DNA from: Dudresnaya verticillata
Taxonomy: Eukaryota
Length of the DNA stretch: 64,000 nt
NCBI GenBank assembly: GCA_977862235.1
Contig: OZ374557.1
Location: 1,550,001 to 1,614,000, forward strand
Reading direction: 5' to 3'
Shown piece after piece: positions 1,341 to 52,485 of the stretch (positions are counted from its first letter, which is position 1; each line of letters begins with the position of its first letter). A program made the translations under genes and the position numbers. Below the pieces are notes generated by a model. It saw only the letters and a program-made list of their open reading frames with translations. It searched no databases and was not told the origin of the DNA.

Positions 1341-1534
1341 CGTGATGTGTAGACTCGTTTATACGCATGAAACGTACTCAATGAATAGCGAGGGCGATCC
1401 TGTAAGAGGATGCTACACGATGCGTACGTGTCAAATTTCCGGGGAAAAAAGGCGCGCTTTTCTTGGACGCAACTTCGTCATAAGAGTGGTCGACGCTATG
1501 CCCCCGGAGAAATCTGGGCATGCTTCTCTCTTTC
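1341..1534 (+). repeat. Left direct terminal repeat of the YR retrotransposon
   Basis: Matches 5403-5595 with 3 substitutions and one 1-nt indel by eye. Confidence 0.95.
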
Positions 1535-1633
1535 GAGAGTCCCCAGAACGACTGGCGGTAGGCACATTTCTAGCTGGTCAAAAGGACAAGACCAAGGACT
1601 GGAGAAGACTGCAGTTCAGGAATCAAGATCGCT

Positions 1634-2317
1634 ATGGCTTCTCCGTTTAAGTCAAGTAAAGAACAAGCTGACACGCTCCTCGTGAAGGCTAAGATGATCG
1701 CCAAGGGAAAGACGCTCCATGAGGCTGGAATAGAGCCGGTATGGATGAACGCCTATGGCCAGATCGCCGAACGGGCATATCGTGATCGCCGATACGGGTT
1801 TAGCCGCTATCCATACGAGGCAGGACCTGCCGTTGGAGCCTTCGTGGGCGGCTTCTTCGATCACCGAGAGTGGGCGCCTCGCAAGGCCCTCGAAAGGCAT
1901 CAGAGCGTGCGGGCAGTAGCCGAATATGAAGCCAAATATGTTAATGCAGCTGGGTACTGGTCTGCGTTTCAGGAAGCGGCTATCGATCTTCGCCAAGAAT
2001 TTATTGCTGACGACAAGGTTGACCAGGCAAACCGTTTCGACGTTTGGGCAATTATTGCAGTACGATACACCTTGAGAGTACTGAGGCTACGTACGGAATT
2101 TTATCGCTTAGCGGTAGAGGACCCTACATATGCTAAGATGGTTCTTCCCGCTTTGGAACGCCGTGGTGATTTCGCGGCAGCCGATGACCTTGAAGGTCCT
2201 CTCGGTGAACTTGCGTCTCATATGAATACCTAGCTGATGAAAGCAGTCGCCACCCTAAATGCTAGTAACGCAACGAAGCGGGCAAAAGGTAAGGGTGGAG
2301 CTGCCGATGGACATTAG
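1634..2317 (+). pseudogene. ORF1 / gag-like protein of the YR retrotransposon, with in-frame TAG at 2231-2233
   Basis: 199-aa ORF (MASPFKSS...) in the position of DIRS gag. The frame continues for 27 more codons after the TAG to a stop at 2315-2317. Assignment is positional. Confidence 0.65.
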
Positions 2318-4271: not shown

Positions 4272-4291
4272 ATACACGCTCTGGTATTCGG

Positions 4292-5341
4292 ATGAATACG
4301 ATTGGGCATGCTGCCACGGATCATGTAGCATTCGTCGCAGGCTCCAGTGCAGGATCTCAGATGACGGCTGCCATGGTGTCGGAATTCGCGTGGAGCAACC
4401 GTACGACGGCTTCTCGGAATTCTCAGTGGAATGCATGGCTTGAGTTCTGTAGCTCAGAAAACCGAGCTCCGTTACCGGTCTCGGAAGGTAGTATCCTGGC
4501 CTTTATCGGATGGATGCGACTCGAGCGCGAGGCTGGTCGACGCAAAGTTAGCAGCGTCTCGCTTCAGCAATACCTTTCGGCCGTTCGACAGATGCACTTG
4601 CTCTTCACCGGTACTGCTCTGCCGCCGCTGCCTTTCGTCTCCCATCTTGTACGTGCTTATCGAACTTGGGAGGAGTCAAACTTCCCTCTGGAGACGGTTC
4701 GCTGCGGACTCTCTGCCGATAAGGTCCAACGCATATGGGCCTTAGGAATGGGTACAGCATCGCAGAGCCTTCTACGAGACTGCGCAGTTTGCGTGTTTGC
4801 CTACTGCTTTAACGGCCTTCGCGAGAGCTCCGTGATTACTTTGAAGACCGAAACATTCTGGTTCGAAAACACTACGCTGTACGCTAGAGCTAGTGTTTGG
4901 AAGGGTCGCACAGTCAGTCTAGAACCGCTACTCTCCTACCACCGGGTCGGAGACGTCTGTTCTCCTCTTGACCTTTTCAACCGCTGGAAGTCCAGCAGAG
5001 GTTCTCATCCACGCTTCTTCGGTCTTCCAGGCGAACTTTCTCAGCCGCAGAGCCAGACCCTCTCTCGTGCCCTTACGCGGGTATTGGACTTGGTTGCAAT
5101 TCGGCCACCACCCGATGGAAAGTATACATCGCATTCCCTTCGCATCGGTGCGCACCCGGAGCAGGTTCTGGTTGGAATTCCGCTAGAGGTCCGCATGGCT
5201 CGATTCGGATGGGGTCCTGACAGTGCTTCTATGGCGTCCCTGTACTTTGACAGGACAATAGGGCCTACCGCTGCGTCGTTCTGGTTTTTCGGAACCGGCA
5301 TTACTGCCGGCACCGCTTCCATTCCGCCGCCGTTGGCGTAG
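4292..5341 (+). CDS. Tyrosine recombinase (phage-integrase fold) of the YR retrotransposon
   Basis: Open frame with catalytic set GLRES (R), WKGR (K), HSLR (HxxR), FGW (W) and SLY (Y), plus an N-terminal core-binding region (QYLSAVRQMH). Confidence 0.92.
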   Translation: MNTIGHAATDHVAFVAGSSAGSQMTAAMVSEFAWSNRTTASRNSQWNAWLEFCSSENRAPLPVSEGSILAFIGWMRLEREAGRRKVSSVSLQQYLSAVRQMHLLFTGTALPPLPFVSHLVRAYRTWEESNFPLETVRCGLSADKVQRIWALGMGTASQSLLRDCAVCVFAYCFNGLRESSVITLKTETFWFENTTLYARASVWKGRTVSLEPLLSYHRVGDVCSPLDLFNRWKSSRGSHPRFFGLPGELSQPQSQTLSRALTRVLDLVAIRPPPDGKYTSHSLRIGAHPEQVLVGIPLEVRMARFGWGPDSASMASLYFDRTIGPTAASFWFFGTGITAGTASIPPPLA

Positions 5342-5366
5342 CGAAAACTCGGGGGCCTCGTTCTCT

Positions 5367-5385
5367 CCGCCCCATGTTGGGGCGG
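5367..5385 (+). other. GC-rich hairpin followed by a T-rich tract, between the YR stop and the right repeat
   Basis: CCGCCCCA-TGT-TGGGGCGG then TGTTTTTG. Function unknown. Confidence 0.5.
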
Positions 5386-5402
5386 TGTTTTTGTTGGGGT
5401 TT

Positions 5403-5595
5403 CGTGAAGTGTAGACTCGTTTATACGCATGAAACGTACTCAATGAATAGCGAGGGCGATCCTGTAAGAGGATGCTACACGATGCGTGCGTGTCAAATTT
5501 CCGGGAAAAAAGGCGCGCTTTTCTTGGACGCAACTTCGTCATAAGAGTGGTCGACGCTATGCCCCCGGAGAAATCTGGGCATGCCTCTCTCTTTC
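5403..5595 (+). repeat. Right direct terminal repeat of the YR retrotransposon
   Basis: Copy of 1341-1534. Confidence 0.95.
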
Positions 5596-7820: not shown

Positions 7821-7930
7821 TAGAGGTAGCGACCTGGTGTTTCGTAGAGTACTTCGTGGCTATGATTGGCGTTTTCGGAATATTAAATCTCTTTGGTGAG
7901 CGTTTCAGCGCCCAACGGCTGTCTGTGGTT

Positions 7931-8321
7931 TGAAAATTGGGGGAAAAGGGTCTGCAGCATGCAGATCAGTAGTGAGAGGGAAAGCGTGGTACTGCAGTTG
8001 AAGTGTCAAAGTAGTTTTGATTGAGGTAGTAGATGGATGCCTCAGAAAGCAGAGGAGTGCTTGTCGAGTCAATACTTATAGACTACAGTCCGCCACACAG
8101 AATCTATCGGACATGATAAAGTGATGAGTATCGTCATCAACGGTATAGTCGTTCTAGTAACAACTAAAATACAATCGTAACAGTAAACTAGCAACGACTA
8201 CAGTGCAAAAGATATTCGTGCCATCTAAAACGATCACAAGTAGTTCTTCAAGCCATGAACGATTCCAAATACAGAAAGCATTTCCAAGCTGTTCAAGCTT
8301 GTAGCAACTCAAAGTTAGACA
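7931..8321 (-). repeat. Copia 3' LTR
   Basis: Matches 12839-13229. Preceded on the minus strand by PPT CGAAGGAGGAGGAA (8322-8335). Confidence 0.96.
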
Positions 8322-8342
8322 TTCCTCCTCCTTCGAGTGAAC

Positions 8343-11300
8343 CTATCCAAGGAAAGCATCAGATTCACGAGACTCGTGCATCGCGAGATCACAGGGTAGC
8401 TTGCCATCAAACATGAGTAGTTGTAAACTGTCTGATACAGCAGAATCAATCTTAGTTAGAGGGTCTGCGAATTTAAGAGTCCCTGGAATCCATGTCACCT
8501 GATTGAGCGCATGTGTTTCGAAGTTTTACCTTAATAGTGCAACATCAGCTGCAATTGACTTATCATCAGGCACTCTGCAGGTCGACATTGATGAAAATAA
8601 ATCCTTAGAATCAACTGCTAGTCCCAAATGCACTGAACCTCCCAGAAGCAATGTGTATGTAGCTGCGATGAATTTTCCAGCATCAAGTGCCTCCCCTGCA
8701 GCCATAACTTCGGCAGAAGCACTAGATTTAGCTGGACGTCTTGATAAGTGGGATTGCCAGCTAAGTAAATGAAACACAGACCCTTTTCTCAATGGGCCAA
8801 TGCAAAGGCCAGCAACATATCCAAGTTGACCAAACTCGTTAGGTCTGGCAGCATCAGAAAACATAAAAACACTTACATCATATGACCCCTTTTCTGGAGT
8901 TCTGAACTTGGTAGTAGACCCAATTCTCTGAAGTTTTCTTACTAAACCTGCCTGTCGCTGCAAATCATGTACAGTTGTGGACGACCGTCGCTGTTGCATA
9001 AAACTTGTGTACAGAGATGCAAAGGGAGAGACATTTTGACCCAAGAATCCAAAGGACCCATTCATAGATGAGAAGGAGAAATCCTCAATTGCGTTCAATG
9101 AATCATCAACCTGCTTTCGTCTTGTTCTTGTTTACCTGTACGGGGTGAGAGCTTCAACTTTGTCTTCAGCAGATATATGAATAACTCCGTCTTCATCTTG
9201 AGTAATAGTTAGCCCAAAGAATACGAACTCTCCTGGTAAATGAACGATTGTTCCGAGCTTATATCGTTTCGATAATGCATCTATGAACGAAGACTTAGCA
9301 TTTTCTTCGCCAACAATCAGAAGGTCATCGACAACTTTGGCCACTAGTAGTACTAAAACTCCATCCCTGCACATATAAAACAACTGGGGTATGTGAACGA
9401 CAGATGAAAGTCCCAGGTCAAGAAGTGTGGAGTCAGAGCGGTATTGCCATTTTGCATTAGCATTAACCAACCCATAACTTGCGGTCAATAGGAGCCAGTA
9501 GAACGATCGATTGACACACTCGCGTGGTGGTATGACATACACATCTCTTTGCGCTCTTCCAGACTGTAGAAATGCGCTCTTAATGTCAATTTTGCTGATA
9601 AACCAACCGAATATAACTGCAATGGACAATAATATTCTAAATCCCAACGGTGGGCATGCAGCAGAATCGGTCTTGAGTGATTTTCGCTCTCTGCCCTTAT
9701 TGCCATGTGGTGCAATCCTAGCCTTGCACCTCTTCGAACCATCATCTAGACGCTTGACCTTGTACAAGACATGACTTGAAATTATATTCGCTCCATGCAG
9801 AACCTTAGAGATGTGAATGCGTTCACAGGTTTGCAAGAAGCTTTCTTCTTCACTTCGGTATGCATTTTGTACTACAGAAGGCGGTAGACCTTGCGCATCC
9901 TTCAATAAGAACTCCTTGGTCCCAAAGCGTTCATAATAGCTGTCCAACAGAATTTTGTCTGAAGGTGTTAGCATCTGTCCTGGTTGCAGAACAATATCAG
10001 CTGCATTAGCATTTCGAGCTTGTGAGCGTGTAACCATTTGGCGTCAATCGTCATTAGCATCACCAAGGGAATTTAGTTCACGTGTGCCAACAGGACCTGG
10101 AGGTGGGTGGTATGTAAGTGAATCCGCACCAAACTGTCCATTGCGAGACACTGAGTCTGGGCTAGGGTGCACACCTTCACCTATATCCATGTAATTTCCA
10201 TCTTGTACATTATGTTTAGTTTTCTCATCAGCATCTACATCGCCATTATTTGTTACATCAGTAACACCAGTCCATCCATTGTCTTCTACATCATCATTAT
10301 TTCCAAAACAATTTCCATCATCATCGTTTCCATCATCATTATTTCCATCTTCTTCAATCACATCAATAGCTGAATATACTGCTGAGTTACATTGATCGAT
10401 AGCGGCTTAAACCATGTGGGAAAATCAGCCTGACTGGGCAATGCGAACCGAACATCCTCGACTGCTGCTTGAACGACACGACCAGCCTTGCCAGGTACAG
10501 TAACAGTTTGAGATTTTTTGTCAAAGGAAAGAGCAGGTCTTGGTAGAGTCCATTTGCCTCTTTTCTCATTGGGTTGCTTGATATAAAGTTCAACAAGAGT
10601 GCCGACATCAATTGCTGCATCTTGTGAAGACTTAGAGCGTAATATTGCCGTAAGCTTGCGGCGTGCAGATAAATCATCGTGTGCTTTGATTATCTCATCT
10701 GGTATAGTAATTGGAGAGTCAGTGGGAATGATAGGACGAGTAAACCCTTTCGCTAGCTCATATGCGGAAGCTATATCATTACCATAGAGGTCATTTGATA
10801 TCCTCATTGCCTGAATCACGAGTAGTCGTGCATTGGCATTTGGGTTGGCGTGACGCAATCGCATAAATATCGACTTAATAACTCTGTGCTTGGATTCCAA
10901 TGCATTTTTGCTTGGACAGCGTGGGGGAGCTGGACGAAACATAGTTCCAATAGAATTCAAATGGTTTTTGAACTCAGCCACATTGAAGGCAGGGTCTCCC
11001 TGTACAGCAGCTGGATTCCAGAACTGTGATATCCAATTTGATTCAAGCACATTAATAGCGTTGGTCATTCCCTTAGTTTGCACGCAATCCCCAGCAGAGT
11101 ACCTTGATACAGAATCCATAATGTGGAAGACTGATTCCTGCTCAGGAAAAAATGATCAATATATACGAGCTGGTTAAATCCCCTAGAGAAATGATTCAGG
11201 GAAACAGTACGGGATCTGACTGGAAGATCCGTCTCGTGGCAACTTCTGCAGGACTCAAGTGTCTTGGATAAATATGACGCACACTCATCTGTCCAAAGGT

Positions 11301-12834
11301 TGTTTCTCTGAAGCAGTGTCTTGATGTCGAAGTAGTTTGAATGTCCACATACATTTTTGTGGACTTTATCAATAATAGACTTCAAATGCCTCCATGACAG
11401 TGAGTTCGAATTTTCTGATGCTTCAGTAGCAGCACGCAAACTGGAGCAAACAACATTATCCTTTGCCGCCGTAAACCTTGAAAACGGCAAATAGTCCAGG
11501 AAGTCATGCTTCAATAGTGACACAGTGTCATATTGTCCGTTGCTTAACTCAGTAGGCAATTGGAGAAAACGGCCATCGATGTGTTGAATGTTGCAGTGGC
11601 TGGTAACATTTTTTCCAACAATCCATTGTGAGGACCCTTCAATAACAACATGTCGTACCTCTAAGACAGAACCAGAGTCACTTAACAAACGTAGAACAAC
11701 GGAACCAATAATTTTTCTAGTGCTGCTCGCATGAGAGCCTTGACCGTACTGCCAATAAGGTCTATCGGCAATTGATTCAGGAATCTGTTCGAGGCATTCG
11801 TCCCACGAACTTAGGACGAAGGGAGCAATTTTCCTTAGTTCAACAAGCCCAATGCCAGAGTAGGGTGCACCATCGTCAAGTAATGGGCCTGGAGCACGAA
11901 GTGGAGAGGCAGTAGCACTATGAATATTGACATTGTTGAATTTCAAGGTCTTTGTCTTACCCTTGTTATCACTTTCATTGTTCCCATTCGTGCCTTTCTG
12001 CGACATAGAACATTCAGCATCACCAGCCCAATGGCCTTTCTCCTTGCACGCACGGCATCTGGAGTTCTTCTTGAAAGCAGCAAGTTCGTCAGCTGTCATA
12101 TCCTTGAATGCCTTGCGTTTGACAGAGCGAGTTCTAAATGGGCGATGGGTAGCACTATTACCCGACAATGGGATAGTTTGTCGCAGAGAAAGCTCAGCAG
12201 GCTTGTCACATGCCCGCAAGATCGAAGGGACTTCTTCATATTTGATCTCATTTAACATTCCATGGATCTTGTTTTGACCGGGTCTCTGACGAATTTCAGA
12301 AGGTCTGGGGGCAGCAGCAGCTAGAATAGATACGCGCTGGTGAGATTCCACATTTGCATTTGCAAGCAACAGAAAGGAGGTAATTGATTCAGGCAGTCTT
12401 GCATCACCAGCTGCAGAATTGAATCTACTCAGCTTGGCATCAAACCGAGTCTCAAAGTTCTTAAATCCTTCAGAATCACCTCTCGTAGTCCCTAGCACAG
12501 ACATAAATTTCTGGAATACGTCATTGACCACTGCAAGAGGGTCGTCTTTGTGAAGAGCACGTGCTATTTCATTCGCGACATCATCCGACAGCAGTTTGTC
12601 TTCTGATATCTTCTTCACAATGTCTTGAGCACGCCCAAAAAGTTGAGCTTGCAACACAATCCCTTGAAGTCCTGGAGCAATCTTATTGCTGTTCGATTCC
12701 GGTAGCTTGTCATGGAACGATTTCCACAGCCGTACAGCACGTACAAACTCTTCTTGTGGACCACGACCGTCCGTCCAGGGAGCATCCTTGAGGGACCAAG
12801 AGAACTTGGGGCGAGATGGCAGATCTGGGCCCAT
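8343..12834 (-). pseudogene. gag-pol: Copia gag-pol polyprotein, disrupted
   Basis: Zn knuckle CRACKEKGHWAGDAEC; protease LLDDGAPYS; HHCC (H..H..CRSC); integrase IDHF, QGDP, LESKH; RT KARIAPHG, DIKSAFLQ, YGL, KVVDD; RNase H FSDA, EVMA, VDSK, ADPLTK. Stops near 10044, 9132 and 8526; frameshifts near 11140 and 10400. Confidence 0.93.
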
Positions 12835-12838
12835 AACT
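12825..12838 (-). promoter_or_regulatory. Copia primer-binding site complementary to the anticodon arm of initiator tRNA-Met (half-tRNA priming)
   Basis: Minus strand reads AGTTATGGGCCCAG directly after the LTR, against the Drosophila copia PBS GGTTATGGGCCCAG. Confidence 0.85.
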
Positions 12839-13229
12839 TGAAAATTGGGGGAAAAGGGTCTGCAGCATGCAGATCAGTAGTGAGAGGGAAAGCGTGGTAC
12901 TGCAGTTGAAGTGTCAAAGTAGTTTTGATTGAGGTAGTAGATGGATGCCTCAGAAAGCAGAGGAGTGTTTGTCGAGTCAATACTTATAGACTACAGTCCG
13001 CCACACAGAATCTATCGGACATGATAAAGTGATGAGTATCGTCATCAACGGTATAGTCGTTCTAGTAACAACTAAAATACAATCGTAACAGTAAACTAGC
13101 AACGACTACAGTGCAAAAGATATTCGTGCCATCTAAAACGATCACAAGTAGTTCTTCAAGCCATGAACGATTCCCAATACAGAAAGCATTTCCAAGCTGT
13201 TCAAGCTTGTAGCAACTCAAAGTTAGACA
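12839..13229 (-). repeat. Copia 5' LTR
   Basis: Matches 7931-8321 and abuts the PBS. Confidence 0.96.
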
Positions 13230-13314: not shown

Positions 13315-13997
13315 TGTGGTGAAGTGAAAGTCACACCTGTAAAGTGTCAGACAATCCCAATAAGGAGTGATCTCACTATGGCACACTCACACGGCACCGG
13401 GGTGGTAGAGCTTAGTTCGTAGACCGAAGGGAGTACCTCGAGCGGCAACGCCTGTAAGTAGTAAAGGGAAGCAGGAGAAAAGGGGGACGGTACGGTGCCA
13501 GGGCAGCTACACCGGGACGGAGGTAAGAGGAATCGGTGCACGGGGCTGGCGAAGGGAAACCGTGAAGGAGTATGAGGGTAGGGCTTAGGGTAAGTCACTT
13601 TGCCCAGGGTTGCGTACCCGTTTACTGTATGACTCGCGTTGGCCACCTATTAATATACTGGGAGATACGCCCCGCGGTCCGGGCAGTGTGGGTCAGACCC
13701 CAATGGGTCTGGTCCACCAGGTGGGTCCGGCCGTACTGGTCCCGGTCACCGTTGCGGACATGCTCGGCATTCTCATTGGCCGGCTGACACTACGTACTGT
13801 ACAGCATCATTACAATTACCTAATTACAAATAAATAAACTACTTGGCTCCAATTGGTGGTGCGCACAGACTCCAGCGAGGCGTACAGTGCTGCTGTGTCG
13901 CTGCACTCCCGTTCGGTGTTTGGTGCCAGCTCACCGGTGCGCTGGTCGCGAGTCGGCTCAACCGTCGTCGGCACTCCACAACGGCCACTTCACCACA
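13315..13997 (-). repeat. Element A 3' LTR
   Basis: TGTGGTGAAGTG...CACTTCACCACA ends. Matches 35824-36498. Confidence 0.95.
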
Positions 13998-14004
13998 GAC
14001 CCCC

Positions 14005-14768
14005 TGTAGTATCTCTAAAGCACCACCGCATACGGCAGCCAAACCAGATCTCAAGAAGACCACAAAGACCTGACGGATTTCACCAAAAACTGGCCAGAAC
14101 GTAGAAGGGACCTGCGCGCCGGTAGGAATCGTGGTAGAGCGGGAGCGCGCAGACGAAGTCGTGACCAGAATCTGTGATGAGGACAGAAAATGGCCAAGTC
14201 GGGGGTTCAGTTGCTAACTTTACTCCCAACCTCTGGCGGGGTGGCTTCGTACCCTTTTCGGCTAAGCCGTGGTATGTGGCCAGCTAAGTAGTCCCAAAAT
14301 CGCCCATCTGAGCTAATCTAGAGCTGTTCTACAGTTAGTGGCCCAATTTACTCCTGTCGGCCATAATATCTACTTGTGTTCCGGCGTCGGGCCAATGTAA
14401 GGCCCTTGCGAGACTAAACCAAGTACTTTTGCGTTAATGGTTGGCCCTGCGAGTTAGATTTTCACTTGATTTTTCCACTGTCTTCGCTTTGATTCACCGT
14501 GCGGCCAAATCCAATTTCAATTTGTGTCTGGCCGCAAATCGGATCATGCGTGTACAACGGGCCACGTGGTGCGCTTCGGTGTCGTAGGTGGCCACGTGTG
14601 AGCCACGTGTACAATCGGTGGCCACGTTTCATTCTTGCGCGCGCTCGCTGCTGTCCGCGCGCCGACGTCACAACTTCATTGGCCCAGTGTCTTCGTTTGG
14701 TTGGGCCGATCGTACAGTTGGACCGTCGAGTTGCTTCCTTACGGTGGCCCCCTTGCTGTTGCACCACA
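14005..14768 (-). repeat. Element B 3' LTR
   Basis: TGTAGT...CACCACA ends. Matches 26441-27203. Contains clustered GCCACGT(G) G-box-like sites at ~14560-14630. Confidence 0.95.
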
Positions 14769-14980
14769 GAGACCCTTCGCAAGCGCGGACTCCTGGCCGC
14801 GTGGGTGTCATCTGGCCATATCAGCGCGCGTGATCCGCGCCGCTACCCCTCTCCCTGCACCCGGTCATCACCATCTTGTTCACACCGACCGTTTTCCCTT
14901 ACCGACACTTGCCAACAACATCGTGCGGACGTCCTTGCTTCGCTTTCCAACTTGCGCGCGCCTGGCCATCTCCTTTCCCC

Positions 14981-17900
14981 ATGGCAGGTGGTCCAGCGAA
15001 AACACGCCCGCGACACACAGTGTCGGCCAAGAAGAAGACCACGCGGCTGCATTCGTCATCCAGTTCGTCGTCCACACCGCCGTCGAGCGATGAAGAAGTT
15101 GGCGTGGCCAAAGTGAAGGCGATGCCGAAGAAGTCTGGCCAGAGTTCGAGGCCGCGCGCGATGAAGGCGCCCAGGGCGTCTTCTGTCCCAGCACCCAAGA
15201 CACCAAGTCGCGCATCTAACGATCCGCTGGCTGCTGTGAAGACCACCGCGGTGGAGGAGCCCATGAAGACTGGCCAGGAGAAGAGTGTCGCTGCGTCTGC
15301 AACTCCGGCCATAGTGCAAGCTACGCCCGACGTGGGCACCTACAAGTTGATGCAGGAGATTGCGGCCAGTCAAAAGAGGCACGAGCCTGAGGAGCAGCAA
15401 CTAGCCAGCCTCAAGAAGAAGCTTGTCGATACACAGAAGGCCAAGTTGGCGCGCAGCGTGACCATTGTCGCATCCTGCTCATCGGAGGAGGCAGCGGCGG
15501 CAATACGCCAACTTGGAGGGGCAATCCGAATGCATCTTCTGTCGTCGGCCCGTTTGCAAAAGAGACGCCGAAAGCTGGCCAGAAGGTAGCAGAAGCGCCT
15601 GAGAAAGGGTTGGTGCAGGCCGAAGTGAAGCGCCTTGAGGCGAAGAATTTGGTGCCGGTCGCAAGCACTACAGTGCCAACGGCCGTTAATCCTACTCCAT
15701 CGCCGTTAGCCACCGCTATTGAGAAGGCTGTGATTGCAATCTCACGTCCGTTGGTTACTCAAGCCACCACTGCGGCCGCGGAAGAAGTAACTGCGGCTCA
15801 ACCCGATTCCGACTCGGCCATGGTATTCGTGCCCGCTCGAGAAGAACCACTGGCCAGTAACGAAGAGTCGCTTGGAAAGGCTGAGAAGACTGGACCATAG
15901 CTAAAAGAAGGAGATAAGTCAGTGCAGAAGACTTCGGAAGCTTTGGCCAATATTCCCGTGCCGCGTAAGACATCGCATTCAGCTACGCCGAGTGCTTCAA
16001 GAAAGTCTACCCCGCGGCTGCGCTCTGTCCCTTCGCCATTCATGCCGACAGCAGCGAGCCGGGCGCGTCAACTGGCCAAGCTAAATATTGGGAAGGCAGC
16101 AGTGCAAGGTCCCCCTGCAAAGCAGCAGCGGTTGCCAAGCAAGGAAATCGGCCAGTCGTCTCGAGCAGACGTTATCGATTTTGATGCCTCTACACCTATT
16201 CCTCCGGCCAACCCTATGTCCGGTGGCGATCGGCGACAGTTTTTGGCTTTGCTTCGCGACGCCGATGATCTTAAAGCTGGCCCGTCTTCTTCTACGCCTT
16301 CTGCAGGCTTGCCGCCCAAGTCATCTGGCCTGAGTGAAGATCCTCGCGTGAAGGAAGTTATCCCGCGCGAAGAGACTTTGGATATCACCAAGGCTGGCCA
16401 GGAGATCCCAAGCTCAAGTGCTGGCCCTTCTGTTCCTACGCATCCGGACCGTGAGCCAGCTTCGCACACTCGTGCTGCTGTGTCTTTCCGTCCCGACCTC
16501 CCACCGGGCCTAGAAGATCAGGATAGCCCCGAGTTGGTTTTGGACGAACGTTTGCCTGGGACTTCTATCTGGCCAAAGTTACCTCGAGTGGATATACCTT
16601 ACACCGAGTGGTGGCCGATAGTGACAAGCTGGACATGATTCGCGTACGGGAAAGCCATTGCCCTCTCAACGAGTCGTGGCACCAATATCGCGAGTCGCAT
16701 GAAAATGGCCATCTCTTTGGATCCCTTCGGAGATCGAGTGCGACCGTGCTTTCTTGCTGTGCGCGCGGGATGTGATGTTCGTCCACGGAGCTTGTTTGAT
16801 GTTCAATGGAAATTCCAGTGTGTACCCTCATACTTCCACATGGTATTACGCCTTCCCTCACTCGTGGATGCTTGAGCGCTGGGAGCAGACGACCGTGCGA
16901 AACGCGAAAATGGCCAGTACAGACCTTCGTCGCATCATAGCGCCGGGAGATTGGTTGGCCCATCGCACGGGTGGTAGCTATGTCTGCCACGGCAACACTC
17001 GCGGCCAGGAAGGGTTTTGGCCCCCTGTCGAATACTTCCCCAGCGTTCCCGCTTTTCTGTGGAAGGAGTGGCTATCGAGAGGTGAAGCTTGCCTACTTAG
17101 CCCTCTGGCCTATTATTTTCTTGGCCAGTATCGTCGTCACGCGTTCGACCCCACTTGGTTTGAGTGCTTCCAGGAAACCGCTGTCGTTGAGTTACACGAA
17201 TGGCCAGCATCTTCTTTCGCTACGAAGCGCAGGCGTCGAAGAGGATGTGGTGGATGTCTTCCCAGGCCATTGCTCGACGAATTGAAGTTGTGAAAGACCT
17301 TACTTATGTCCCCGTCAGCCAGGAGCACAAGCATCAATTCAACCATGTGTATTGGCCAGATATTGTCTCGTTGTATGAGAAGTTGGCCGATACAGTGTTG
17401 CACCGTGACCATTTGTTTCAACGCAGAGCTGGCCACGATGAGAAGTATTGCGGCTTCGACTGGAACAAGCATGTGACTTTTCGGCATGGTAGTAGCTTTG
17501 GAGTTGAAGTGGCCAATAACGCTTCCATCGTGCGGGCCAGCATCCTGCATCCTCATCCGCATGTGGTGGCCGAACGTTCCGTGCGCGGCCATGTTAACCA
17601 AATGTCTTTGGCCAACATCTTGCGGCAGCTGAACCAGAACATTGGCCGTCTCAGCGACATGAAGCGTCGCCAGACTGTCGAGCTCAACCGCCTTCGTCAT
17701 CATGTTGATGACGTTGATCATGCGTTGATCATGTTGATGACGTTGAAGGAGTTATCCGGCGGGGCGAAGAGCGATTGGCCAATGTTAGGAGTCAAAAGGA
17801 TCATATCGAGGCTGAGCTGCGAAACGCGAAGGAGTCACTGGCCAGATGCAATGAACAAGGTCTGGAGTGGAAGAGGCAGCGCGACCACTGGTGCGATGAA

Positions 17901-18400
17901 GCTCATAACCAACAGGCCTTACTTGACTTGGAGCGCAACCGTGGATTTCATCAGCTGGCCAGTTTGCGTGCAGCTTATGCACCGCCGGTCTTTGGCCAGA
18001 TGCCTCAGTTTCCTCTGCCCTCCCTGCCAACGCCTGCGCCGCCTCCAACCGTGCCACAATATCCTGGGGTCTCAGTGGCACCGGCCACAACCTCCACGTC
18101 GTCTCATGCTGGTGACATCTCTGGCCATCCGCGCGCGCCGTCTCGACCGGCCGATTATCAGCCAGAGCCAATCCGTCCGGTGGTGTTGGCTCCGCCTACT
18201 CCTGTGGCCAATGTTGTTCAACCTGGCCTTGTTCCTGTTAGTTTGGCTCTGCCGATCACTTTGCCCTTCGTGACGCCGCCAACCGTTCCTGCGACGGCCC
18301 ACGTGCTCCTACGAAAGCGCCTCGCGCACCTTCACAGTCAAGGAGCAGAGAGCCCAATTCTTCGGGTTCTCCTCGCTCACCAAGTCCCTATGGCCGTTAG
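14981..18400 (+). pseudogene. Antisense extra ORF of element B (~1100 codons, unknown function, frameshifted)
   Basis: Chain of abutting + strand ORFs (14876-15589, 15610-15900, 15922-16638, 16754-17293, 17200-18273, 17775-18593). They join into a basic/disordered N-terminus, a W/H/Y-rich globular region, a coiled coil and a Pro-rich C-terminus. End is approximate. Confidence 0.8.
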
Positions 18401-19222
18401 TTTTCAAGGTATTGGATTAGTAGTTGGCCAGTTCGTCTTGTTATCTTCTGCTGTCCAATGCGTTGTTGTTAGTCTTGTGATTTCTTGTGTCTTGTGTTTG
18501 TGTTATCAAAAGTTGGTGGCCAAGTTCGTGCTTCTAAGATTGGACAGCCCCCCTTGTGTTTGGGGGATATTTAGTCTGTCCGGCCATTCTTGAGTTAAAA
18601 TGCACTGGTTGCCTTCAAACATTTTGTGTGTTATCGTGGCCAGTTACCAGTCAAGTGGGGCCGTATGGCCTCTGTTCGTCCGGGTCAGTAGGTCTTGCTT
18701 CTGGCCAATGCTCATGAGCACAGATTCTTCAAGTCACCAAAGGAGGAGTAACGGCCAGCTATTGTCTTTGTCTCATCGACTTCAAGCACCCCATCTGGCC
18801 ATGTTTTTTCTCTGGCCAATTTCCTTCTTGTTGTCAGTAGGGGGTTATCGTTGTCACCCCTGTCTCCTCACTCTGCGCAAGTCCCCGCTTCGGCGCACGA
18901 CGCGTGGGAATTAGAGTTACCTGGAGGAGGCAGCAAAAGATGAGACAGTTTCTACCATCTGTTTACACCCGCTGAATTTCGGCGTACACCGGGAGATTTG
19001 CTGGCCGCAATTTTTCTCACACAATGATTGGCCAGCTTACATTATTCTGGGTTAACCCTAAACACCGCCGTCGGGTTTTTGGTGAAGAGGTTCCAGCCGG
19101 GGTATTTTGTCACTCAGCATCTCCTTCCTTCGTCCACGACCGCCCCGCATCTCCGTCTTCACACGTTTTTGGCCAGACTCCGACTCCTCTCGCTTGACTC
19201 CCTGGCCATGTAGAGGTTGACC

Positions 19223-22200
19223 TTACGAACTGTTTTGGCCCGGCGTAGCTCGGCGCTTCATGCGCGCGAAGAAGCGGGATACCAACGTGGCCGGCAGAAG
19301 AGCCTCGGGCTCCCAAGTTCGGCCATAATACCCATACCAGTTGACCTGAAACCACCGCTGGCCAGTAGAATCCTCACGCATATCCGTGAGTTTGTCAATG
19401 ACATATTCCTCGGCCGTCGCAGCAACTCCTTCTGGAAGGGTTCCCAAAGCGGCGCTGGTCATTGTCTCCGTAGCCATCGGTTGCCCTTGTGGCCTCTGCG
19501 CGGCTACTACTCGGTCCGAACTAACACGCTCCAGTTGGCCAGCCCTGTCTATGACGAACGTACGGCCATCATTGCTTATAATTTTGTATGGCCCCTGGGC
19601 ATGATGCTCTAGTTTCTTTGGCTGCTTTTCTGGGTTGCCTAGGAAGACAAAACCCCCTGCGGCCAGCCTCTTATTCCCCGTCCTGACCGAGCGGTCAAAG
19701 TCCCTCTTGTAGCGCGCCTGTGTGCGGGTTAAACTGGCCGAAGCCTTGTCTACGGCCTCTGATAATCGGCGTAAAAATGCCTCTTTCACCGTCCCAGTTG
19801 GTTTTGGCCGGTTTAACGTAGCTTCAAGTGAAAATGGGCTCGGGGCCGACTGAGAACCAAGTCAAACGGTGTGGTTCCAGTGGAGCGATGTATATGGCAA
19901 TTATAAGCATACGTCAATGCCGCAGCGTACTCATCCCAGTCATTCTGATGTTCATTCACGTAGCTCCTCAGCATTGCGGCCAATGTTCGATTGTACCTTT
20001 CCACGTGGCCATTCTTTTGTGGATGATATGTCGTTGTGAAGATGTTGGCCACCTGTAATTGTCGGCAGACTGCCTGGAAGAACTTGGCCGCAAAATGTCC
20101 ACCGTTGTCGGTAAGAACTGTCTTTAGCGCGCCGTACTTGAAAATCCAGTGAACGCAAAACGCCGTGGCCACATTATAGGCGGTTATCTTCGTCAAAGGC
20201 ACCACCTGAGTCAGCTTCGAGAAGCGGCATGTAATGCCTAATATGTGCTCGAACCCCTTCTTAGTTCTGGGGGGCGGCCCAAGAAGATCCATGGCCACAC
20301 TCTCTAATGGTTGACTGGCCGGGAAGAGCTGTAACTTCGATGTATGTCGGAGACGACGAATCCGGTTTTTGGCGCAATGGCCACAGTTTCGAACCGTTGC
20401 CAGGCAATCAGCGGCCATGTGCGGCCAATAGTATGTCCGTCGAAGAGTCTGATACATTACATTCTGGCCGGAGTGACCTGGCAGAACGGTATGGTGACAC
20501 AACCGAAGAATCCGGCCATGTAGCAAGGCTGGAAGCACTATTTGTTTCTGGCCATCTGTCGGACATCGTCTGTAGAGGACCCCATCGACCCCTTCGAAGA
20601 AGAGATGTTTCTTGGATCGTCCCAGGCCAGCTCGCGTGGCGAGAATTGTCTGACAGAAGTCATCGCTTTTCTGGCCTTCTATTATTTCAGTCTGTGTCAC
20701 TGGCGTGGGGAGAGTCTCTGCTGTCTCTCCTTCCATTTGTGCACGACTGAAGACTTCCGCCCGGCCCTAGTCCGTATAATAGGCCATCAAGTGTTCCTCT
20801 TCCCGTGCGTCGACTCCATCGACTTGTTCTCTCCTGCCGGCCATATTAATTACTCGATTTATCCGGGCACGCGTGGTCGTGAGAATAGAGGGGGTACCGT
20901 CCAATACAGGTACAGTATCATCTATAGGCCGTGCATCTCCGCTCTCTTGCGGGCCCACCAAGCGGGACAAGGCGTCGGGGATTTGGTTATTGCGCCCTGG
21001 TTTATACTCAATCACAAAGTCGAACTCGGCCAAACGTAATCTCCATCTTGTAAGACAGCCAGACGAATCAGTGAGCGACATCAACCAAAGGAGGGAATCA
21101 TGGTCCGTGCGTACTGTGAACTTCGTACCTTCAACATATGGCTGTAATGATGTAATGGCCCACACCACAGACAGACACTCGCGCTCAGTGGCCGAATACT
21201 TTTTCTCGGCCGACGTCAGGGAACGATACCGATATCCCACGGGATAGTACGACTTGTCCTCTTGTTCTTGGAGCAGGACGCATTCAATCTGATATGCGCT
21301 GGTATCAGTTTCAATCACATATGGCCGTCCATATCGCGGTAAGGCCAGAATCGGTGGCGAGACCAGAGCAGCCTTCAGTTTCTCGAAGCTATGGCTTTTT
21401 TACTCTGTTGGCCGTTCGAAGTCCGGCTCGGCGTCCTCGCACAACATGCGCGTAAGTGGCCGTGCAATCGTGGAGTATTTAGCCACAAACCTTTGGTAGA
21501 TATTGCAAGCTCCCAAGAAGGAACGAAGTTCCGTAAGGGATCCTGAAAACGCGCCCTCTTTTATTTCCTTGGTACCCTGCATGGCCATACTTAGTTTTCC
21601 GGGAGTCACTACATGACCCAGATAATCCACTTTGGCCTGAAAGAAGGAACACTTCTTCAACTTCAACGTAATACCGGCCGCCTTCAACAAGGTTAGCACC
21701 TCGTCTAGATGGCCAAGATGATCCTCCACACTTTTGGAGAACACGATGACATCGTCCAGATAGATGAGGCATATCTGCCATCGGACGCCAGAGAGAACTA
21801 TGTCAAGCGCGCGCTGAAATGTGGCCGGTGCGTTCTTGAAGCCAAATGGCATTCGATTGTACCTGAATGTTCCCAAGTGAGAGGTGAAGGCCGTCTTATC
21901 CTTGTCCTCTTCGGCCACTGGTATTTGCCAATATCCGGAGTTGCAGTCCAAGGTTGAAAACACGGCCGCATCCCCAAGTGATTCTATACAATCATCCATG
22001 CGCGGGAGTGGATATGCGTCACCAACTGTCTTCGCATTGAGTCGGCGGTACTCGACGCAGAAACGAACGGTGCCGTCCTTTTTCGGTACCATCACAATTG
22101 GCGAGGCCCATTCTCCGTGCGATGGCTATATCACTCCGGCCTACAACTGCTTCCTAACGTCGGCCTCTGCGATCGCGCGTAGCGCTGGTCCCTGTCGGTA

Positions 22201-23660
22201 GGGTATCGCTCTTATTGGCCGGGTTACATCTTCGAAGTCTATCCGATGTTCGGTGGCCATGATCTGTCCCAGGGAACCGTCCCACATTGCACTGTGTTTC
22301 TCTAGAATGGCCATTATCTTTTCGCGTTGTTTCTTGTCCGGGATATGATCAAGCTTGATCTTATCCCGCCATTCTTCCGCCTCTTGTGTGGGTACCTTCG
22401 GTTCCGAAGGCTTACCTCTTTCCTGGCCAGATTCTTCTACTTCTACTTGACCACTATCCTGATCCACAAGTGGAGTGAGCCCAAGTACACTGGCCATACT
22501 CTCCACACTCCGTCGGTGTGGCGTCAGGATTTCCATGGGGTGGCGGACAGCATAGCCGCCCACGGTACCCTTTGGCAGTAAGACACCCTTTCTTCCCCAG
22601 TTGGCCATCATTTCCTGGAATGGTTTCTGCGGTCGAACGTCGGCAAATCCATTGGCCATCCGCGTATGGTGCCGGAAGCTCAAAGAATGTTTGGGCTCCA
22701 ACACGCATAAACCTCGGCCATCACTGCGAACAGACACGGTAGCCTGTTGACCTGCCCGTATGGTCAGACCTTTCGTCAAGCTTACAGTTTCTGCGTAGTG
22801 ACGCGGGGTCTTGCGTTCCACACTGGCCGAATTGGAATTCCCCTGCGCCGGCCCCCTTCGCAGCGGTTGGCGCTGCCCCCAGAGCCCTCGAGGTGCTGTC
22901 GGGTAAGAAGGGAAGGACGTCACCGCGCACTAACTGCACGATCTGTCCACGGCACTGGATACTATCCACGTGCGTGTTCAGAAATTCCGTACCCAACAAG
23001 ACGGGTACGGCAAAGCGAAGGTCGGCGATAAGGAACGGCACTCGATATGAATGACGGCCTAAGCGCATGACCAAGGAAACGGCCCCTCGAAAATGAATCG
23101 GCCGTTGGTTGGCATCCACCGGAAGAGGTGGGCACGTCAATGTGAGTGCGTTGTCCTTCCCATTGGGAGGCAACGCATCCAACCGTATGATGTTCCACCC
23201 CGAGCATGTGTCCAATGCAACTGGCCCGGGTAACAAGGCAGACATTGTGAGGCCAAATGAACCCGAGAGGGTATAGTTGGCCCCACCCAGGATGCAGACC
23301 ATACCTTGTGATGAAACACTGGCCAGCTGGGAATCTTCTTTCGGTTCTTCGTTCGATGATTTGCGACCACTCGTTGGCAAAGACCCCCCATCTTTTGTGG
23401 TGGGGGTGGATGATGATGATGTAGTGTGGCCAGACCCCCAGGGCTGTGACCGCACCAGACCGTTAGATGAAAATGGGCAGTGGTAGGTCAAATCATGGGT
23501 TGACCAAACCTGGATTGGCGTTGCCAAACGCCATGCAATGGCTAACAAAGAAGAAAAATGGAGATAACTAACAGGAAACAACTTAACTGAAACGAGACTA
23601 GCCGGTTTTGGGACGTGTACGGGCAACGGGATCACGACCGAAGATCTCGGCCCGACTAGT
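19223..23660 (-). pseudogene. pol: Element B pol (PR, dUTPase-like domain, RT, RNase H, integrase, chromodomain)
   Basis: LDTCSG, PKKDGTVRFCVEYRRLN, YLDD, ECLSVVW, HSG, CGHC, MDLLGP, TDNG, ERYNR, GPY and chromodomain motifs. Several stops. Confidence 0.94.
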
Positions 23661-25964
23661 TTCCCGATGCCAACGAAGAGTTATCGGACTCCACATCGGC
23701 CACCACCTCATCCATTGGATGTTCTTGCGTAGTGACTAACGTGGCCTGCCGATTCCCAGGGTTCAAAGATGATTGTTGCGGCCGTCGGAGTATTCCCTGA
23801 GGGGAAGGACGTCCCCTTCCATCCCCAAAGGAGACATTGATCGGGGCGGTAGCCTTGACCTTGGCCGGCATACTGCTCAGGGTGCCATCTAGCGTACTCA
23901 TCTCGGAAGCGGACGTTACGTATGGCAAACAAGTTCCTGATGGCCATTGGTAAGTGCACACAAGTGTACAAATCATGGCCCCATTCGCGACAACCCCAAC
24001 AACGGGCACTGGTTTTGTCACTGCGTAGCATAATAGCGACTTTGGCCAGCTCATCCGACGTCAACGTCGGAGGTTTCCGGAGTGGGTCCGGGGTGTTACC
24101 CCCGGATACCGACCCTGCCATTGACGGTGTGGTCGGCGCCATTGTCGGTGTTTGCTGAGAGCCATTCTGGCCAGGGGTAATGGCCATAACCGGTATGGTG
24201 TCAAACGGATCATCATAGTTGGCCGCTATATCCTCGGGCTCCGCCTGCCAAGAAGGTTCAGCCGCAAGGGTAGGGATGACCAACGCGCTTCGAGAACTGG
24301 CCGACTTTGTTTTGGGACGTGCAGAAGCCAAGTAGGCTCTGTGTGTCTCCCCCTCGGCGATGGCGATACGGCGCACCGTCGAGAAGTCCTTCTCCTCCGG
24401 CCGCATCTGGATACGCTTCTCAGCTACGGCAGAACGAGTGGTCGAAGGTAAACCCCTCACATAATGGTTGATCAGGGTATTCTCCGAGAGGACATCGGCG
24501 CACGACAGCGCCGCGTCCCCTAACCGGTCAGCGAATTCCGCTTCTGTCTTGGCATCTTTCTGTTTGTTTCTGGCCACTTTGTCGAACGCGGCGGCCAGAA
24601 CATCTTCGGTGCAGTAGCGCTTGATGAGAGCGTGGACTAAGTGTGGGCAGCTAATTTGCGAAAATCCACTCATTGGAAAGATGGATTGTACTGACCGTAT
24701 ACCACGGGACATCCGGCTAGAATAGAACCTCTTCGCATCACCGGCCGTAAAGAAGGACAGAAGACGCAAAGCGGCCCCTTCATGGACGTTCGTCCCATCA
24801 CAGGCATACTTGAACTCCTTGAGGAAGGACAGGAGCTCGATCGGACGTCGGCCGTCAAATGGGTTCATCTGCGGGAACAGGTTCCGGATTTGACGAGTCA
24901 TCCATAGTCATCGTTGGCCGAGTATCCAAAAGGCGATGGGTCCGGTAATCAACCACCCGCCGGAAGGGTTCTTGGAGGGTCTTGAGAGGCTCTAGACCTG
25001 GTTCCATTGGCCCCATCATCGCGACAGGAAGACCTGTTTCATCCAACTGGCCAGTGTATCCCATGGAAGGTTCCCCTGCATCAACGGGCCCCGAAGGTCC
25101 AACTAAAGCAGGCCGTGGGGCGGCACCACTGTTCTGAGTGTTGCCCTCTTGCGGTGCTACCCCTTATACAGGAATATTTGGCCGGGCCTTGTCAGGATGC
25201 GACTAGGCCGATATCTCATCTTGCAACTGGTCCAGTTGCTTCTGCACTGCTGCTACCAGTTCAACGACCTGTGGTGCCAAGACTGGTTGATTGGCCGGTG
25301 TTATCCGAGCGGACTCGGACCTTGTCTGGCCAGGGAGGGCAGGGAGTTTTACCTTCCCGTCGGAAGCGAAAACGGCCGCCTCAACCTTTTCCAGACTCTC
25401 ATCATAACGTTCCGCTATGGCCGTAAGTGCACCGTCTAGGATGACGGAGTGTATCTCCTGGCGAAGCTGTTGGTCCCTAATCAGAGCCGTGGTGGACATC
25501 TTGACTTGCATCTCGCCAAACTGGTTCTTCACCTCTTGTTGCCACTCGGCTGTACGTCGCTTATACTGGTAGAACTCTTGCCGACCCAACCAGACGTCGT
25601 GTTCTGGCTGGGAATAATCATCAACCGGGGGTGGACGAAGATTATCAGGAGCGCCCAGTGGAGTCATCGGCGGCGCTGTGGCGGGCGGTGGCGTGCGAAA
25701 CGGCGAAACCGGAGGGGCAGCCCGCGGCGGTACCTCATTACGGACGGCACCCGCCATGGAAGAAGACCCTGCTCGTCCAACTGTCGAAGGAATGAACTGG
25801 CCAGTCGATAACGGGACCGGAGGGGCTGGTGGCGGCCCCGATAACGGTGGATATAGGCCAGGAGCAGGTGGTGGGCCTATGGGAGCGCCCAACGTAGAGG
25901 GAGCCGGAGCGGAGCCTTGTAAGGGCTGCGGTTGTCCGCCTGCCGGTGAAGAAGAAGAAGACAT
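23656..25964 (-). pseudogene. gag: Element B gag
   Basis: Pro-rich N-terminus, capsid-like FDGRRPIELLSFL..., Zn knuckle CWGCREWGHDLYTC, ending GGGAAAC-TAG. Frameshifted. Confidence 0.88.
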
Positions 25965-26421
25965 GACGAAGTACGTCGGAGACTGATTGGCCAGATACTT
26001 CTAGCGATTCGTGGCCACCCCGTGGCCGACGTGTGCGAAGTGGCCTTGCTGGGAACCACACTGTCGTGTGCAAAACAAAGGGGTGGGAACGGACGATTAA
26101 GAGCTACTAGTCCCTATATCAAGGGCCGGACACTGCCGTGTGCAAAGCTCCCTGTGCTGGGAACGAACCAGTGAGTGTGCAAAGTGGCCACCCTGGGAAC
26201 GAACCAAGCGACGTGTATCTTGCCTATGGCCTAGACTACGGCCACAGAACCGGGTTGAAGTAGACTGACAATCAGATTGCGAAATCGGGTAGTTACTAAC
26301 CCCCAATCTGCAACTTGCGGTGTTTGGCCACCACTGCAGCGAGGAAGACACTGGCCGTCGTCGACTACGGCCAGCTACTCGAGTCTTCTAACGGAGAAGT
26401 AGGCCGAAATCACAACTGATC

Positions 26422-26439
26422 TTCTAGGTCGGGAGACCA
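26422..26439 (-). promoter_or_regulatory. Primer-binding site of B, inferred tRNA-Tyr; same PBS type in A (35800-35817), C (38168-38185), E (52467-52484) and F (54831-54848)
   Basis: TGGTCTCCCGACCTAGAA is complementary to a tRNA ending ...CTAGG-TCGGGAG-A-CCA. C1:G72 with A73 is the eukaryotic tRNA-Tyr signature, and yeast tRNA-Tyr ends CGGGAGACCA. The LTR-PBS spacer is 1 nt in B/E/F and 5-6 nt in A/C. Confidence 0.85.
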
Positions 26440-26440
26440 G

Positions 26441-27203
26441 TGTAGTATCTCTAAAGCACCACCGCGTACGGCAGCCAAACGAGACCCCAAGAATACCACA
26501 AAGACCTGACGGATTTCACCACAAACTGGCCAGAACGTAGAAGGGACCTGCGCGCCGGTAGCAAGCGTGGCAAAGCGGGAGCGCGCAGACGAAGTCGTGG
26601 CCAGAAGCTGTGATGAGGACAGAAAATGGCCAAGTCGGGGGTTCAGTTGCTAACTTTACTCCCAACCTCTGGCGGGACGGCTTCGTACCCTTTTCGGCTA
26701 AGCCGTGGTATGTGGCCCGCTAAGTAGTCCCAAAATCGCCCATCTGAGCTAATCTAGAGCTGTTCTACAGTTAGTGGCCGAGTTTACTCCTGTCGGCCAT
26801 AATATCTACTTGTGTTCCGGCGTCGGGCCATTGTAAGGCCCTTGCGAGACTAAACCAAGTACTTGTGCGTTAATGGTTGGCCCTGCGAATTAGATTTCAC
26901 TTGATTTTTCCACTGTCTTCGCTTTGATTCACCGTGCGGCCAAATCCAATTTCAATTTGTGTCTGGCCGCAAATCGGATCATGCGTGTACAGCGGGCCAA
27001 GTGGTGCGCTTCGGTGTCGTAGGTGGCCACGTGTGAGCCACGTGTACAATCGGTGGCCACGTTTCATACTTGCGCGCGCTCACCGCCGTCCGCGCGCCGA
27101 CGTCACGACTTCATTGGCCAGGCGTCTTCGTTTGGTTGGGCCGATCGTACAGTTGGCCCGTCGAGTTGCTTCCTTTCGGTGGCCCCCTTGCCGTTGCACC
27201 ACA
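26441..27203 (-). repeat. Element B 5' LTR
   Basis: Matches 14005-14768 and is adjacent to the PBS. Confidence 0.95.
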
Positions 27204-28696
27204 CCCCCCTCCTTAAATGGCGACACGTCCTCGTGCGCCCGCTTCGGTTTTCGTCCACACCGTATCGGTTTCGTTCCATTGACACCATAACGGCTTCGTA
27301 ACCGGCACCTGTGCTCGGGTGTGGTCAAGGTCCCCGTTTTGGTACAATCTGCCCCGCGCGTATTCCCAAAGCCAAAGTCCATCACACCAAAATGGAGTGT
27401 GGATCCACCGGTGGTTCGCCGTGTCAATGACCGAAGGACTCCAATCGGATTCGCAAATAATCCCTTGCGGAGTGCGCTGTAGTGCCCGTGAACAGTATGA
27501 GGAAACCATGCCGAAATTTGAACTTGGTCTCCCGCTCCACTTCACTTCCATCCAGTGTCGCGGTGTGGACACAACACACAACCCATAATGGCGTTTGAGC
27601 GAAACATATTCTACAGACGCCCGGGGTCCTTTGGCGGAGCCAGTACCGAAACATACTCCAATACGGTGTGCCATGCAGTGGCTGTTGACAACATGGGGGA
27701 AGCTATGCCCGATTTTTCGGTAATTGCTCACATATGGCGCGAAACGGTGTCACAACATCCCAATGACATCGTGTGCGAAGCCTAAAGCTTGTTCCTTTCC
27801 GACTCTTGGACGCGACTCTTCTTACACGGGCGGCACCGTTTCGGCGGAATATATTAATGTCAATATATCAACATTAATATATTAATGTTAAGTAAGCTGT
27901 TCTCCACATAAATATATTAATGTTAAGAAAAGACATAAAATTAATCTCAACATTAATATATTAACCCGAGCTCCGGTGGTGTGGAAATCCGAAAAAACGG
28001 TGCTTGAAGCGACGGTGGTAGACCGGAATCGGACTCCGGAAGGGTACGCGCACAGTCCCCGAGACGCGGAAACTTCCGGGTATCGTCTCCCTCGATACCA
28101 GAACGGTGTATGCGGCCGTGGTAACTGGCCGGAGCTATTTGCCAGGGCTCTACACTCCAAAAAAGCGGCGGCGCGCCCGATGCGGCAAGTCGGAACGTGA
28201 GAGTACATGCACAAGTGCACCTGTTTTGGAGCCAGCGTGCGCAAACGACCGCAAGCCTCCACTCCCTGTCCGTGTTTGCAGCGCAATGCCCCAAATTGCA
28301 CAAGCAGAGTGGGAACTGGGCTGGTATCAGTTTGGAACCAAGGACGAGCATACCAATATGGAGTGAAACCCCTTGGGCAAGGGCTCGGTGACCGTGAGTC
28401 CAGGGGTCATGCCGAATTTTACGGCATGCAACACCATCGGGGCGGAAATGGCGGGCAAAGCGCACGGCGATATGACGGTGTCGCGTAGCAGTTGTCTCGA
28501 CACGCTTCCCACTCCAATACCGGTATTTGTGACACGATAGTACCCCACATTACCGAAACGGTGCACACGACCTTGGCGCCCCGCGGGAAATGGTCTCCAG
28601 GGTCATTCCACTGCGAACACCACTCAGGGCACGTTCCGTATGCCTTATTAGGGACGGACAACACCGTAAAGGAGCGGACCGCTATCTCAATTCCGG

Positions 28697-35659: not shown

Positions 35660-35823
35660 GTGTTCTCCTATTCTTAGGTTACCAAAACGGAGTCAACGAG
35701 TGTTTTGCCTTGTCCTGCCTTTACACCAATACGGAGTTGTCACAAAGCTCACCTCCTACCGAAGCGGAGTCCCACGGAAATTCTTCTACCTTGACGGTCT
35801 TCTAGGTTGGGAGACCAAAACGA

Positions 35824-43636: not shown

Positions 43637-43753
43637 GCACGATTGCCGACGAGAGCAAAAAACCCATATAGACGCTTCACACAATCGGTCTCATCGTCCG
43701 CTCGGCTCCCGCGTCGTCAAACACGACTTCATCGTGTGCGAGCGGTTGACGGC

Positions 43754-52418: not shown

Positions 52419-52485
52419 CCTTTACTTTGATCGTGTCGATGCGAGAAGTACTTGGTTCTCGACGACTTCTAGGTCGGGATACCAG

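Follow-up and report, generated by a model that had tools for sequence, protein, structure and literature searches.

Organization of the host element

The window, i.e., the whole stretch of DNA that was analyzed, comprises 64,000 nt of contig OZ374557.1 from the red alga Dudresnaya verticillata. It harbors a 13.2-kb Ty3/Gypsy element at 14005-27203 that encodes gag-pol on the minus strand and contains, in the opposite orientation, the remains of a long additional gene at 14981-18400 on the plus strand. The element is bounded by direct repeats (minus strand), the 764-nt 3' LTR at 14005-14768 and the 5' LTR at 26441-27203, which share 95.6% identity, with 33 substitutions and a single indel between them. 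Both LTRs have TG..CA ends, and the flanking sequence carries a CCCCC target-site duplication at 14000-14004 on the left and 27204-27208 on the right. The decayed gag region spans 23400-25964 (minus strand; tblastn match to the gag of the related locus L084, E 4e-48), and the decayed pol spans 19223-23400 (minus strand), consisting of the protease region, reverse transcriptase (RT), RNase H, and integrase. The pol order RT-RNase H-integrase, the LTR ends, and the target duplication define the focal element as Ty3/Gypsy. Behind the 5' LTR, the sequence shows no self-priming match that reaches 8 nt.

The integrase C-terminus (19223-19410, minus strand) matches the chromodomain family PF00385 with E 0.0044 and 17.4 bits, which is under the curated cut-off. 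The three aromatic cage positions, which define group I chromodomains (PMC3350952), are present when the sequence is read by eye. The weak match and the cage residues together point to an integrase C-terminal chromodomain, the defining feature of chromoviruses; on this basis the element is a putative chromovirus. The chromodomain Gypsy element named in a preliminary description of this DNA is confirmed by the LTRs, target duplication, pol order, and chromodomain-like stretch. Among the 120 integrase relatives listed, the two with a named eukaryote genome are from Chondrus crispus, which on its own would make a red alga the likely host. The focal element sits beside an LTR that belongs to a second chromodomain Gypsy element (13315-13997, 35824-36498), within a run of the latter that resembles a polypurine tract. 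Five stops and three or more frame changes interrupt the gag-pol of the focal element, and the focal copy is dead.

The antisense gene and its decay

The antisense gene occupies about 1,080-1,140 codons in pieces. It begins at ATG 14981, the first ATG past the 3' LTR and 212 nt away from it with no ATG upstream, in keeping with the ∼210 nt given in the preliminary description. Its 3' end is uncertain: an end at 18400 requires an extra, unproven frame change near 18290, without which the last frame extends to 18593. A basic N-terminus and a long predicted disordered region rich in Ser, Pro, Ala, and Thr (14981-16540) are followed by a globular domain broken by three frame changes (16540-17620; homology is statistically firm at ∼16660-17140 and weaker downstream), a predicted coiled coil (17620-17960), and a Pro-rich tail (17960-18400), all on the plus strand. 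The order of regions noted earlier, including the aromatic-rich character of the globular part, is thus reproduced, and the layout of the first region is the same in intact relatives. The gene lies antisense between pol and the 3' LTR and exceeds 250 codons as a decayed frame, which is the placement of the antisense additional open reading frames (ORFs) termed aORF-3R.

The single open frame of ∼1100 codons described previously does not exist in this copy. The reading uses three frames. It shifts near 15500-15535, 16615, 16712, and 17200, shifts again where a tandem duplication of 29 nt (17699/17728, about 17700-17745) interrupts the coiled coil, and crosses a stop at 15898-15900. At least six breaks (five frame changes and one stop) are needed, and the longest ATG-initiated ORF within 14981-18400 is 357 aa. 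Dinucleotide shuffles of the same span require 19.6 ± 2.6 breaks with a minimum of 12 (n = 300; none as low as six), while equal-sized stretches of pol and gag require five each. The opposite strand of the antisense span requires 14 breaks, a value reached by 28 of 300 shuffles. A former gene that decayed together with its element explains why the breaks number six rather than the ∼20 of shuffled DNA and resemble the ∼5 of pol and gag. The antisense span is a decayed copy of a real gene, which very probably encoded a protein of the element and was presumably intact when the focal copy inserted.

Assembly error was considered as the cause of the breaks, but the stop, the 29-nt duplication, the five gag-pol stops, and the 4.4% divergence of the LTRs point to real decay. 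All frame changes in the antisense gene run in one direction, and those breaks that involve single bases could be errors. The neighboring young Copia element, which bears on the same question, likewise contains two such frame changes and two stops.

Intact homologs under purifying selection

The broken window pieces used as queries gave no match by word-based protein search or by scans of viral and metagenome sequences, and phmmer found none among 1.84 billion representatives. The best value in the ESM Atlas was 0.86 for window pieces, which is under the usable level, and the intact domain of L158, a homolog, also had no usable match there. DNA was therefore fetched around integrase relatives, giving 157 loci that include repeat contigs misplaced in bacterial bins. 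Comparison of the first globular piece with three such bins revealed two matches in one of them, G001 (E 1e-5 and 2e-5, 27-28% over 140 residues). From these matches, two intact frames (746 and 1,015 codons) were recovered, as was a third that runs across two overlapping contigs; a family profile added one more protein, P0121 (703 aa). The G001 bin (L084-L093, L158-L179) is assigned to a bacterial genome and holds at least 12 eukaryotic retrotransposon contigs bearing chromodomains, an instance of bin contamination.

The intact proteins, here called group G, share a disordered N-terminus, a globular domain, a Pro-rich linker, and a predicted coiled coil, with heptad-like C-terminal stretches visible by eye. 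A profile of the four intact relatives, built without the window sequence and searched against 20,484 six-frame pieces, returned window positions 16703-17290 as its only match below E 0.3 (E 6.9e-7). When the window gene was read with X at each break, profile-profile comparison aligned 228 columns across the breaks with a probability of 93.6. The window piece 17200-17620 had no match when searched alone.

The intact homologs are under purifying selection. Between two group G relatives with 73% DNA identity, dN/dS is 0.085 in the domain (bootstrap 0.05-0.13, 222 codons) and 0.23-0.27 in the flanks. The dN/dS analysis proposed in the preliminary description for copies of the element thus reveals selection, on relatives rather than on copies of the exact window family. 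The group G contigs are short and attempts to join them to any contig with pol failed, so that the window alone ties the group to an element. The same bin contains the integrases closest to that of the window, but their contigs stop a short way past pol.

Antisense genes across the integrase clade

Many other loci bearing pol have long intact antisense frames directly behind it. These frames sort into six families, A to F, each of which lies within one integrase clade in a tree that comprised four window elements and those 118 members of L001-L121 for which 200 or more residues could be aligned. Of the 90 clade loci, 41 have 3 kb or more of DNA past the integrase core. An antisense family is matched by 35 of these 41, as opposed to none of 17 comparable outgroup loci; because the profiles behind the family labels were themselves made from these loci, among which near-duplicates are numerous, the counts denote presence rather than independent events. 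In seven pairs from families A-F, dN/dS ranges from 0.20 to 0.43, with 0.05-0.06 in two pol controls; dS values are near saturation. Purifying selection is therefore also seen where the antisense gene is physically linked to pol, and the conservation across copies and families under selection that characterizes aORF-3R is found in these relatives. The pol ends of 11 of 15 relatives match PF00385 at E ≤ 0.05. The earlier proposal of an accessory gene that belongs to the element is supported by the intact selected homologs and by the recurrence of antisense genes in this position throughout the clade. Elements of this clade likely make their own helper protein.

The relationships among the families vary in strength. 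Profile comparisons link A, B, and F (P 1e-7 to 7e-7) and C with E (1e-4), while other links are weak. The profiles of families A-F fail to find the gene of the window, and 74 of 500 shuffles reach the score of its own read-through against the joint A-F profile. For the four intact group G members, the corresponding numbers are 0, 1, 2, and 16 of 500 shuffles. Profile-profile comparison of G with A-F gives a colinear match (P 0.0003-0.05), and a similar helix run is present in the two structure models (mean pLDDT 55 and 43). A common origin of group G and families A-F is reasonably probable on this evidence.

In two clade elements within the window, no more than about 1-1.5 kb follows pol, which implies that the antisense gene is dispensable in cis. 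At L031:10516-11642 (minus strand), a decayed antisense frame behind pol weakly matches the A-F profile (E 0.005) and possibly represents a further family. Outgroup Gypsy elements (L094-L120) carry long third ORFs of 680-1,100 codons behind pol on the sense strand, which are possibly env-like.

Features of the predicted protein

No Pfam family above cut-off, and specifically no Transposase_28/TRP28 (PF04195), was found in the window pieces, the proteins of 15 relatives, or 26 domain sequences. Across these 26 sequences a single proline is the only invariant residue, so that the sequence hints at neither a catalytic site nor a mechanism. Sequence search of the PDB gave nothing below E 1, and a Foldseek search of the A-F model against PDB and BFVD gave no match at E ≤ 0.001. 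The best structural comparisons (VIA) covered 73 residues at Z 3.6 (rmsd 4.0) and 117 residues at Z 4.6 (rmsd 4.7). With models of low-to-middling confidence (mean pLDDT 55 and 43), too weak to fix the fold, these comparisons are evidence for neither a new fold nor a structural difference.

By hydropathy analysis, the N-terminus of the window protein lacks a hydrophobic stretch, and the maximum over 19 residues is a mean of 1.62, compared with 1.08-2.06 in 14 relatives. The gene is antisense to gag-pol and the scan detects no signal peptide or membrane anchor; the product is thus not env-like, in agreement with the preliminary description. The sequence AKKKTTR, described there as resembling a nuclear localization signal (NLS), does not match the monopartite NLS patterns scanned. 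NLS-like motifs occur in seven of 14 intact proteins and are absent from the other seven; all three full-length group G proteins have short basic motifs of this type. Families E and G contain strong basic clusters, and several families have large disordered tails rich in Arg, Gly, and Pro.

Relation to known accessory genes

Antisense additional ORFs between pol and the 3' LTR (aORF-3R) include gene23 of maize Grande and those of rice RIRE2, Silene Retand, and PvRetro13 (PMC7264820; PMC11963269). The Grande gene23 product is nuclear and the gene is separately transcribed (PMC7264820). The window gene and its relatives resemble these ORFs in position, orientation, the long region from pol to LTR, segments of coiled-coil type, and conservation across copies. 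Unlike the antisense protein of Retand, they lack Transposase_28/TRP28 and any other Pfam domain, and unlike Grande, RIRE2, Retand, and PvRetro13, the window element has a chromodomain integrase and a red-algal host.

Boty of the fungus Botrytis cinerea is a chromodomain element, i.e., a chromovirus. The brtn gene of Boty/BcGypsy1 is likewise an antisense extra gene in a Gypsy element from outside the land plants (PMC7264820; PMC8365987); it is fungal, and its comparison with the window gene is by description only. The preliminary description had set this element apart from plant Tat/Retand elements; that contrast is weaker than stated, as antisense ORFs are also described in fungal Boty (PMC7264820). 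In red algae, the Plavaka DNA transposons of Bostrychia carry accessory genes, PAG1-3, of which PAG1 has no known domain (bioRxiv 10.1101/2025.02.11.637652). The window gene shares with them the status of an accessory gene in a red-algal transposon. In contrast, Plavaka are DNA transposons, and the methylase, SET, ParB-like, and 2OG domains of PAG2/3 were not detected in the window gene.

The terms 'Rhodophyta' and 'red alga' have 0 occurrences in the part of the REXdb survey that was available (PMC6317226). A search of the literature outside subscription journals, Repbase entries, and supplements found no report of a red-algal Gypsy element with an antisense ORF. The layout is thus known from the antisense extra ORFs of Grande, Retand, and Boty, while the protein family and host lineage appear to be new in the resources searched. 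Antisense extra ORFs of LTR retrotransposons have so far come from flowering plants and one fungal group. The clade described here adds a third lineage with a large, selected, clade-wide protein family whose intact natural members are fit for expression, folding, and localization studies. In red algae, LTR elements drive most genome growth and silencing in red seaweeds is unexplored, according to the Bostrychia report (bioRxiv 10.1101/2025.02.11.637652). A regulator encoded by the elements themselves, if true, would hence be a handle on silencing in red seaweeds.

Putative role of the antisense protein

The account that best fits the whole, and is somewhat favored here, is an element-encoded antisense accessory protein that would act in trans in the nucleus. 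The antisense gene would be transcribed from the 3' LTR side, judging by its position, and the protein may self-associate through the predicted coiled coil. By analogy with Grande gene23 and the Retand ORFs, it could then act on the expression or chromatin of the element. Given a real gene, the chance of a nuclear regulatory role is judged slightly better than even. In general terms, the product is most likely a soluble regulator that the element produces for its own use.

The same gene may instead encode a protein that works outside chromatin, by binding the RNA or particle of the element or by blocking silencing through small RNAs, as modeled by some retroviral accessory proteins. Half of the intact proteins are without NLS-like motifs, the Arg/Gly/Pro-rich tails of several families would suit such a role, and no DNA-binding fold is recognized in the models of low-to-middling confidence. 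Against it stand the basic clusters of families E and G and the findings on the plant analogs studied, whose products are either nuclear or predicted DNA binders (PMC7264820; PMC11963269). This role is a tentative second choice.

The TGGCCA motif

The focal element contains 75 dispersed TGGCCA palindromes (14005-27203) located in the LTRs, spacers, and all genes, where 4.7 are expected, a ∼16-fold excess that confirms the enrichment reported in the preliminary description. The rest of the window has 17, with 13.6 expected. Among 92 segments, TGGCCA is the strongest hexamer bias (-log10 P 22.8, the next being 7.7), and no such enrichment is seen in the other 91. The excess persists at fixed protein sequence, with 21 motifs in the antisense gene (4.2 expected) and 24 in gag-pol (7.3 expected, from a synonymous-codon set that contained some out-of-frame codons); 0 of 300 shuffles reach either count. 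Spacing between motifs ranges from 13 to 1033 nt, including coding regions. Three other Gypsy stretches of the window, at 27209-35820, 37800-43750, and 43754-53050, display weaker private motifs (ACTCCG/ACACCG, TACGGA/CGTTAC, and CAGCGG, respectively; -log10 P 6.5-7.3), which are above nearly all outside loci and perhaps derive from a process of the host genome. No antisense gene was detected in these three elements.

It was suggested earlier that the antisense protein reads this motif. The model for such a mechanism is VANC of the Arabidopsis VANDAL DNA transposons, for which motif binding and demethylation have been demonstrated and whose motifs are 8-9 nt long and lie in non-coding tandem repeats (PMC5735166). 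The protein would be a sequence-specific TGGCCA reader, and the element would have filled itself with the motif for recruitment in VANC-like anti-silencing. The size of the excess, its confinement to the focal element, its persistence at fixed protein sequence, and the fit of a palindrome to a dimer are all consistent with this mechanism, and VANC is similarly an accessory protein encoded by an element rich in one short motif. However, the contigs of the intact group G homologs contain 0-2 TGGCCA and no enriched hexamer, and the majority of elements whose antisense gene belongs to family A, B, C, D, or E likewise lack one. The three window elements that have weaker motifs of their own and no detected antisense gene point to a process of the host genome. 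Unlike VANC, the window gene is part of an LTR retrotransposon, has no Pfam match, and is known from its sequence alone, and its motif is dispersed within genes rather than set in tandem repeats (PMC5735166).

The reader mechanism is accordingly unlikely. The most extended version is improbable too: an ancient antisense gene with a new-fold domain common to red-algal chromodomain Gypsy elements, which here would encode a dimeric, VANC-like, TGGCCA-binding anti-silencing factor with sites placed across the element even through synonymous codons. The TGGCCA bias is real and, as the sequences compared suggest, a feature separate from the antisense protein; a tie between the two is not supported.

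Passive cargo and chance

A captured host-gene fragment or nested element carried as passive cargo would account for the absence of a physical link between the closest intact homologs and pol. No named host protein is present among the homologs found, the same position and orientation recur in six other families across the clade, purifying selection also acts at loci linked to pol, and no internal terminal repeats of at least 40 nt occur in the focal span, all of which make such an origin very improbable. The occurrence of homologs elsewhere also sets aside the concern, raised in the preliminary description, of a host-gene fragment unique to the focal copy. Chance open frames in GC-rich non-coding DNA, which could explain the lack of any ORF above 357 aa and of any Pfam match above cut-off, are refuted to near certainty by homology to intact selected ORFs (E 6.9e-7, probability 93.6) and by six breaks versus ∼20.

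Other elements of the window

An open low-complexity frame of 199 codons at 63404-64000 (minus strand) lies antisense, 1.9 kb behind the pol of a plus-strand element that ends near 61535. It has no Pfam match and may represent the end portion of another antisense gene that the window boundary truncates. A repeat-bounded element at 1338-5595 contains an 809-aa ORF and overlapping long frames; neither of the two ORFs compared with Pfam gave a match at E 0.01. The young Copia element at 7930-13229, with its two frame changes and two stops, has a GC content of 43% and LTRs that differ at 2 of 392 nt.
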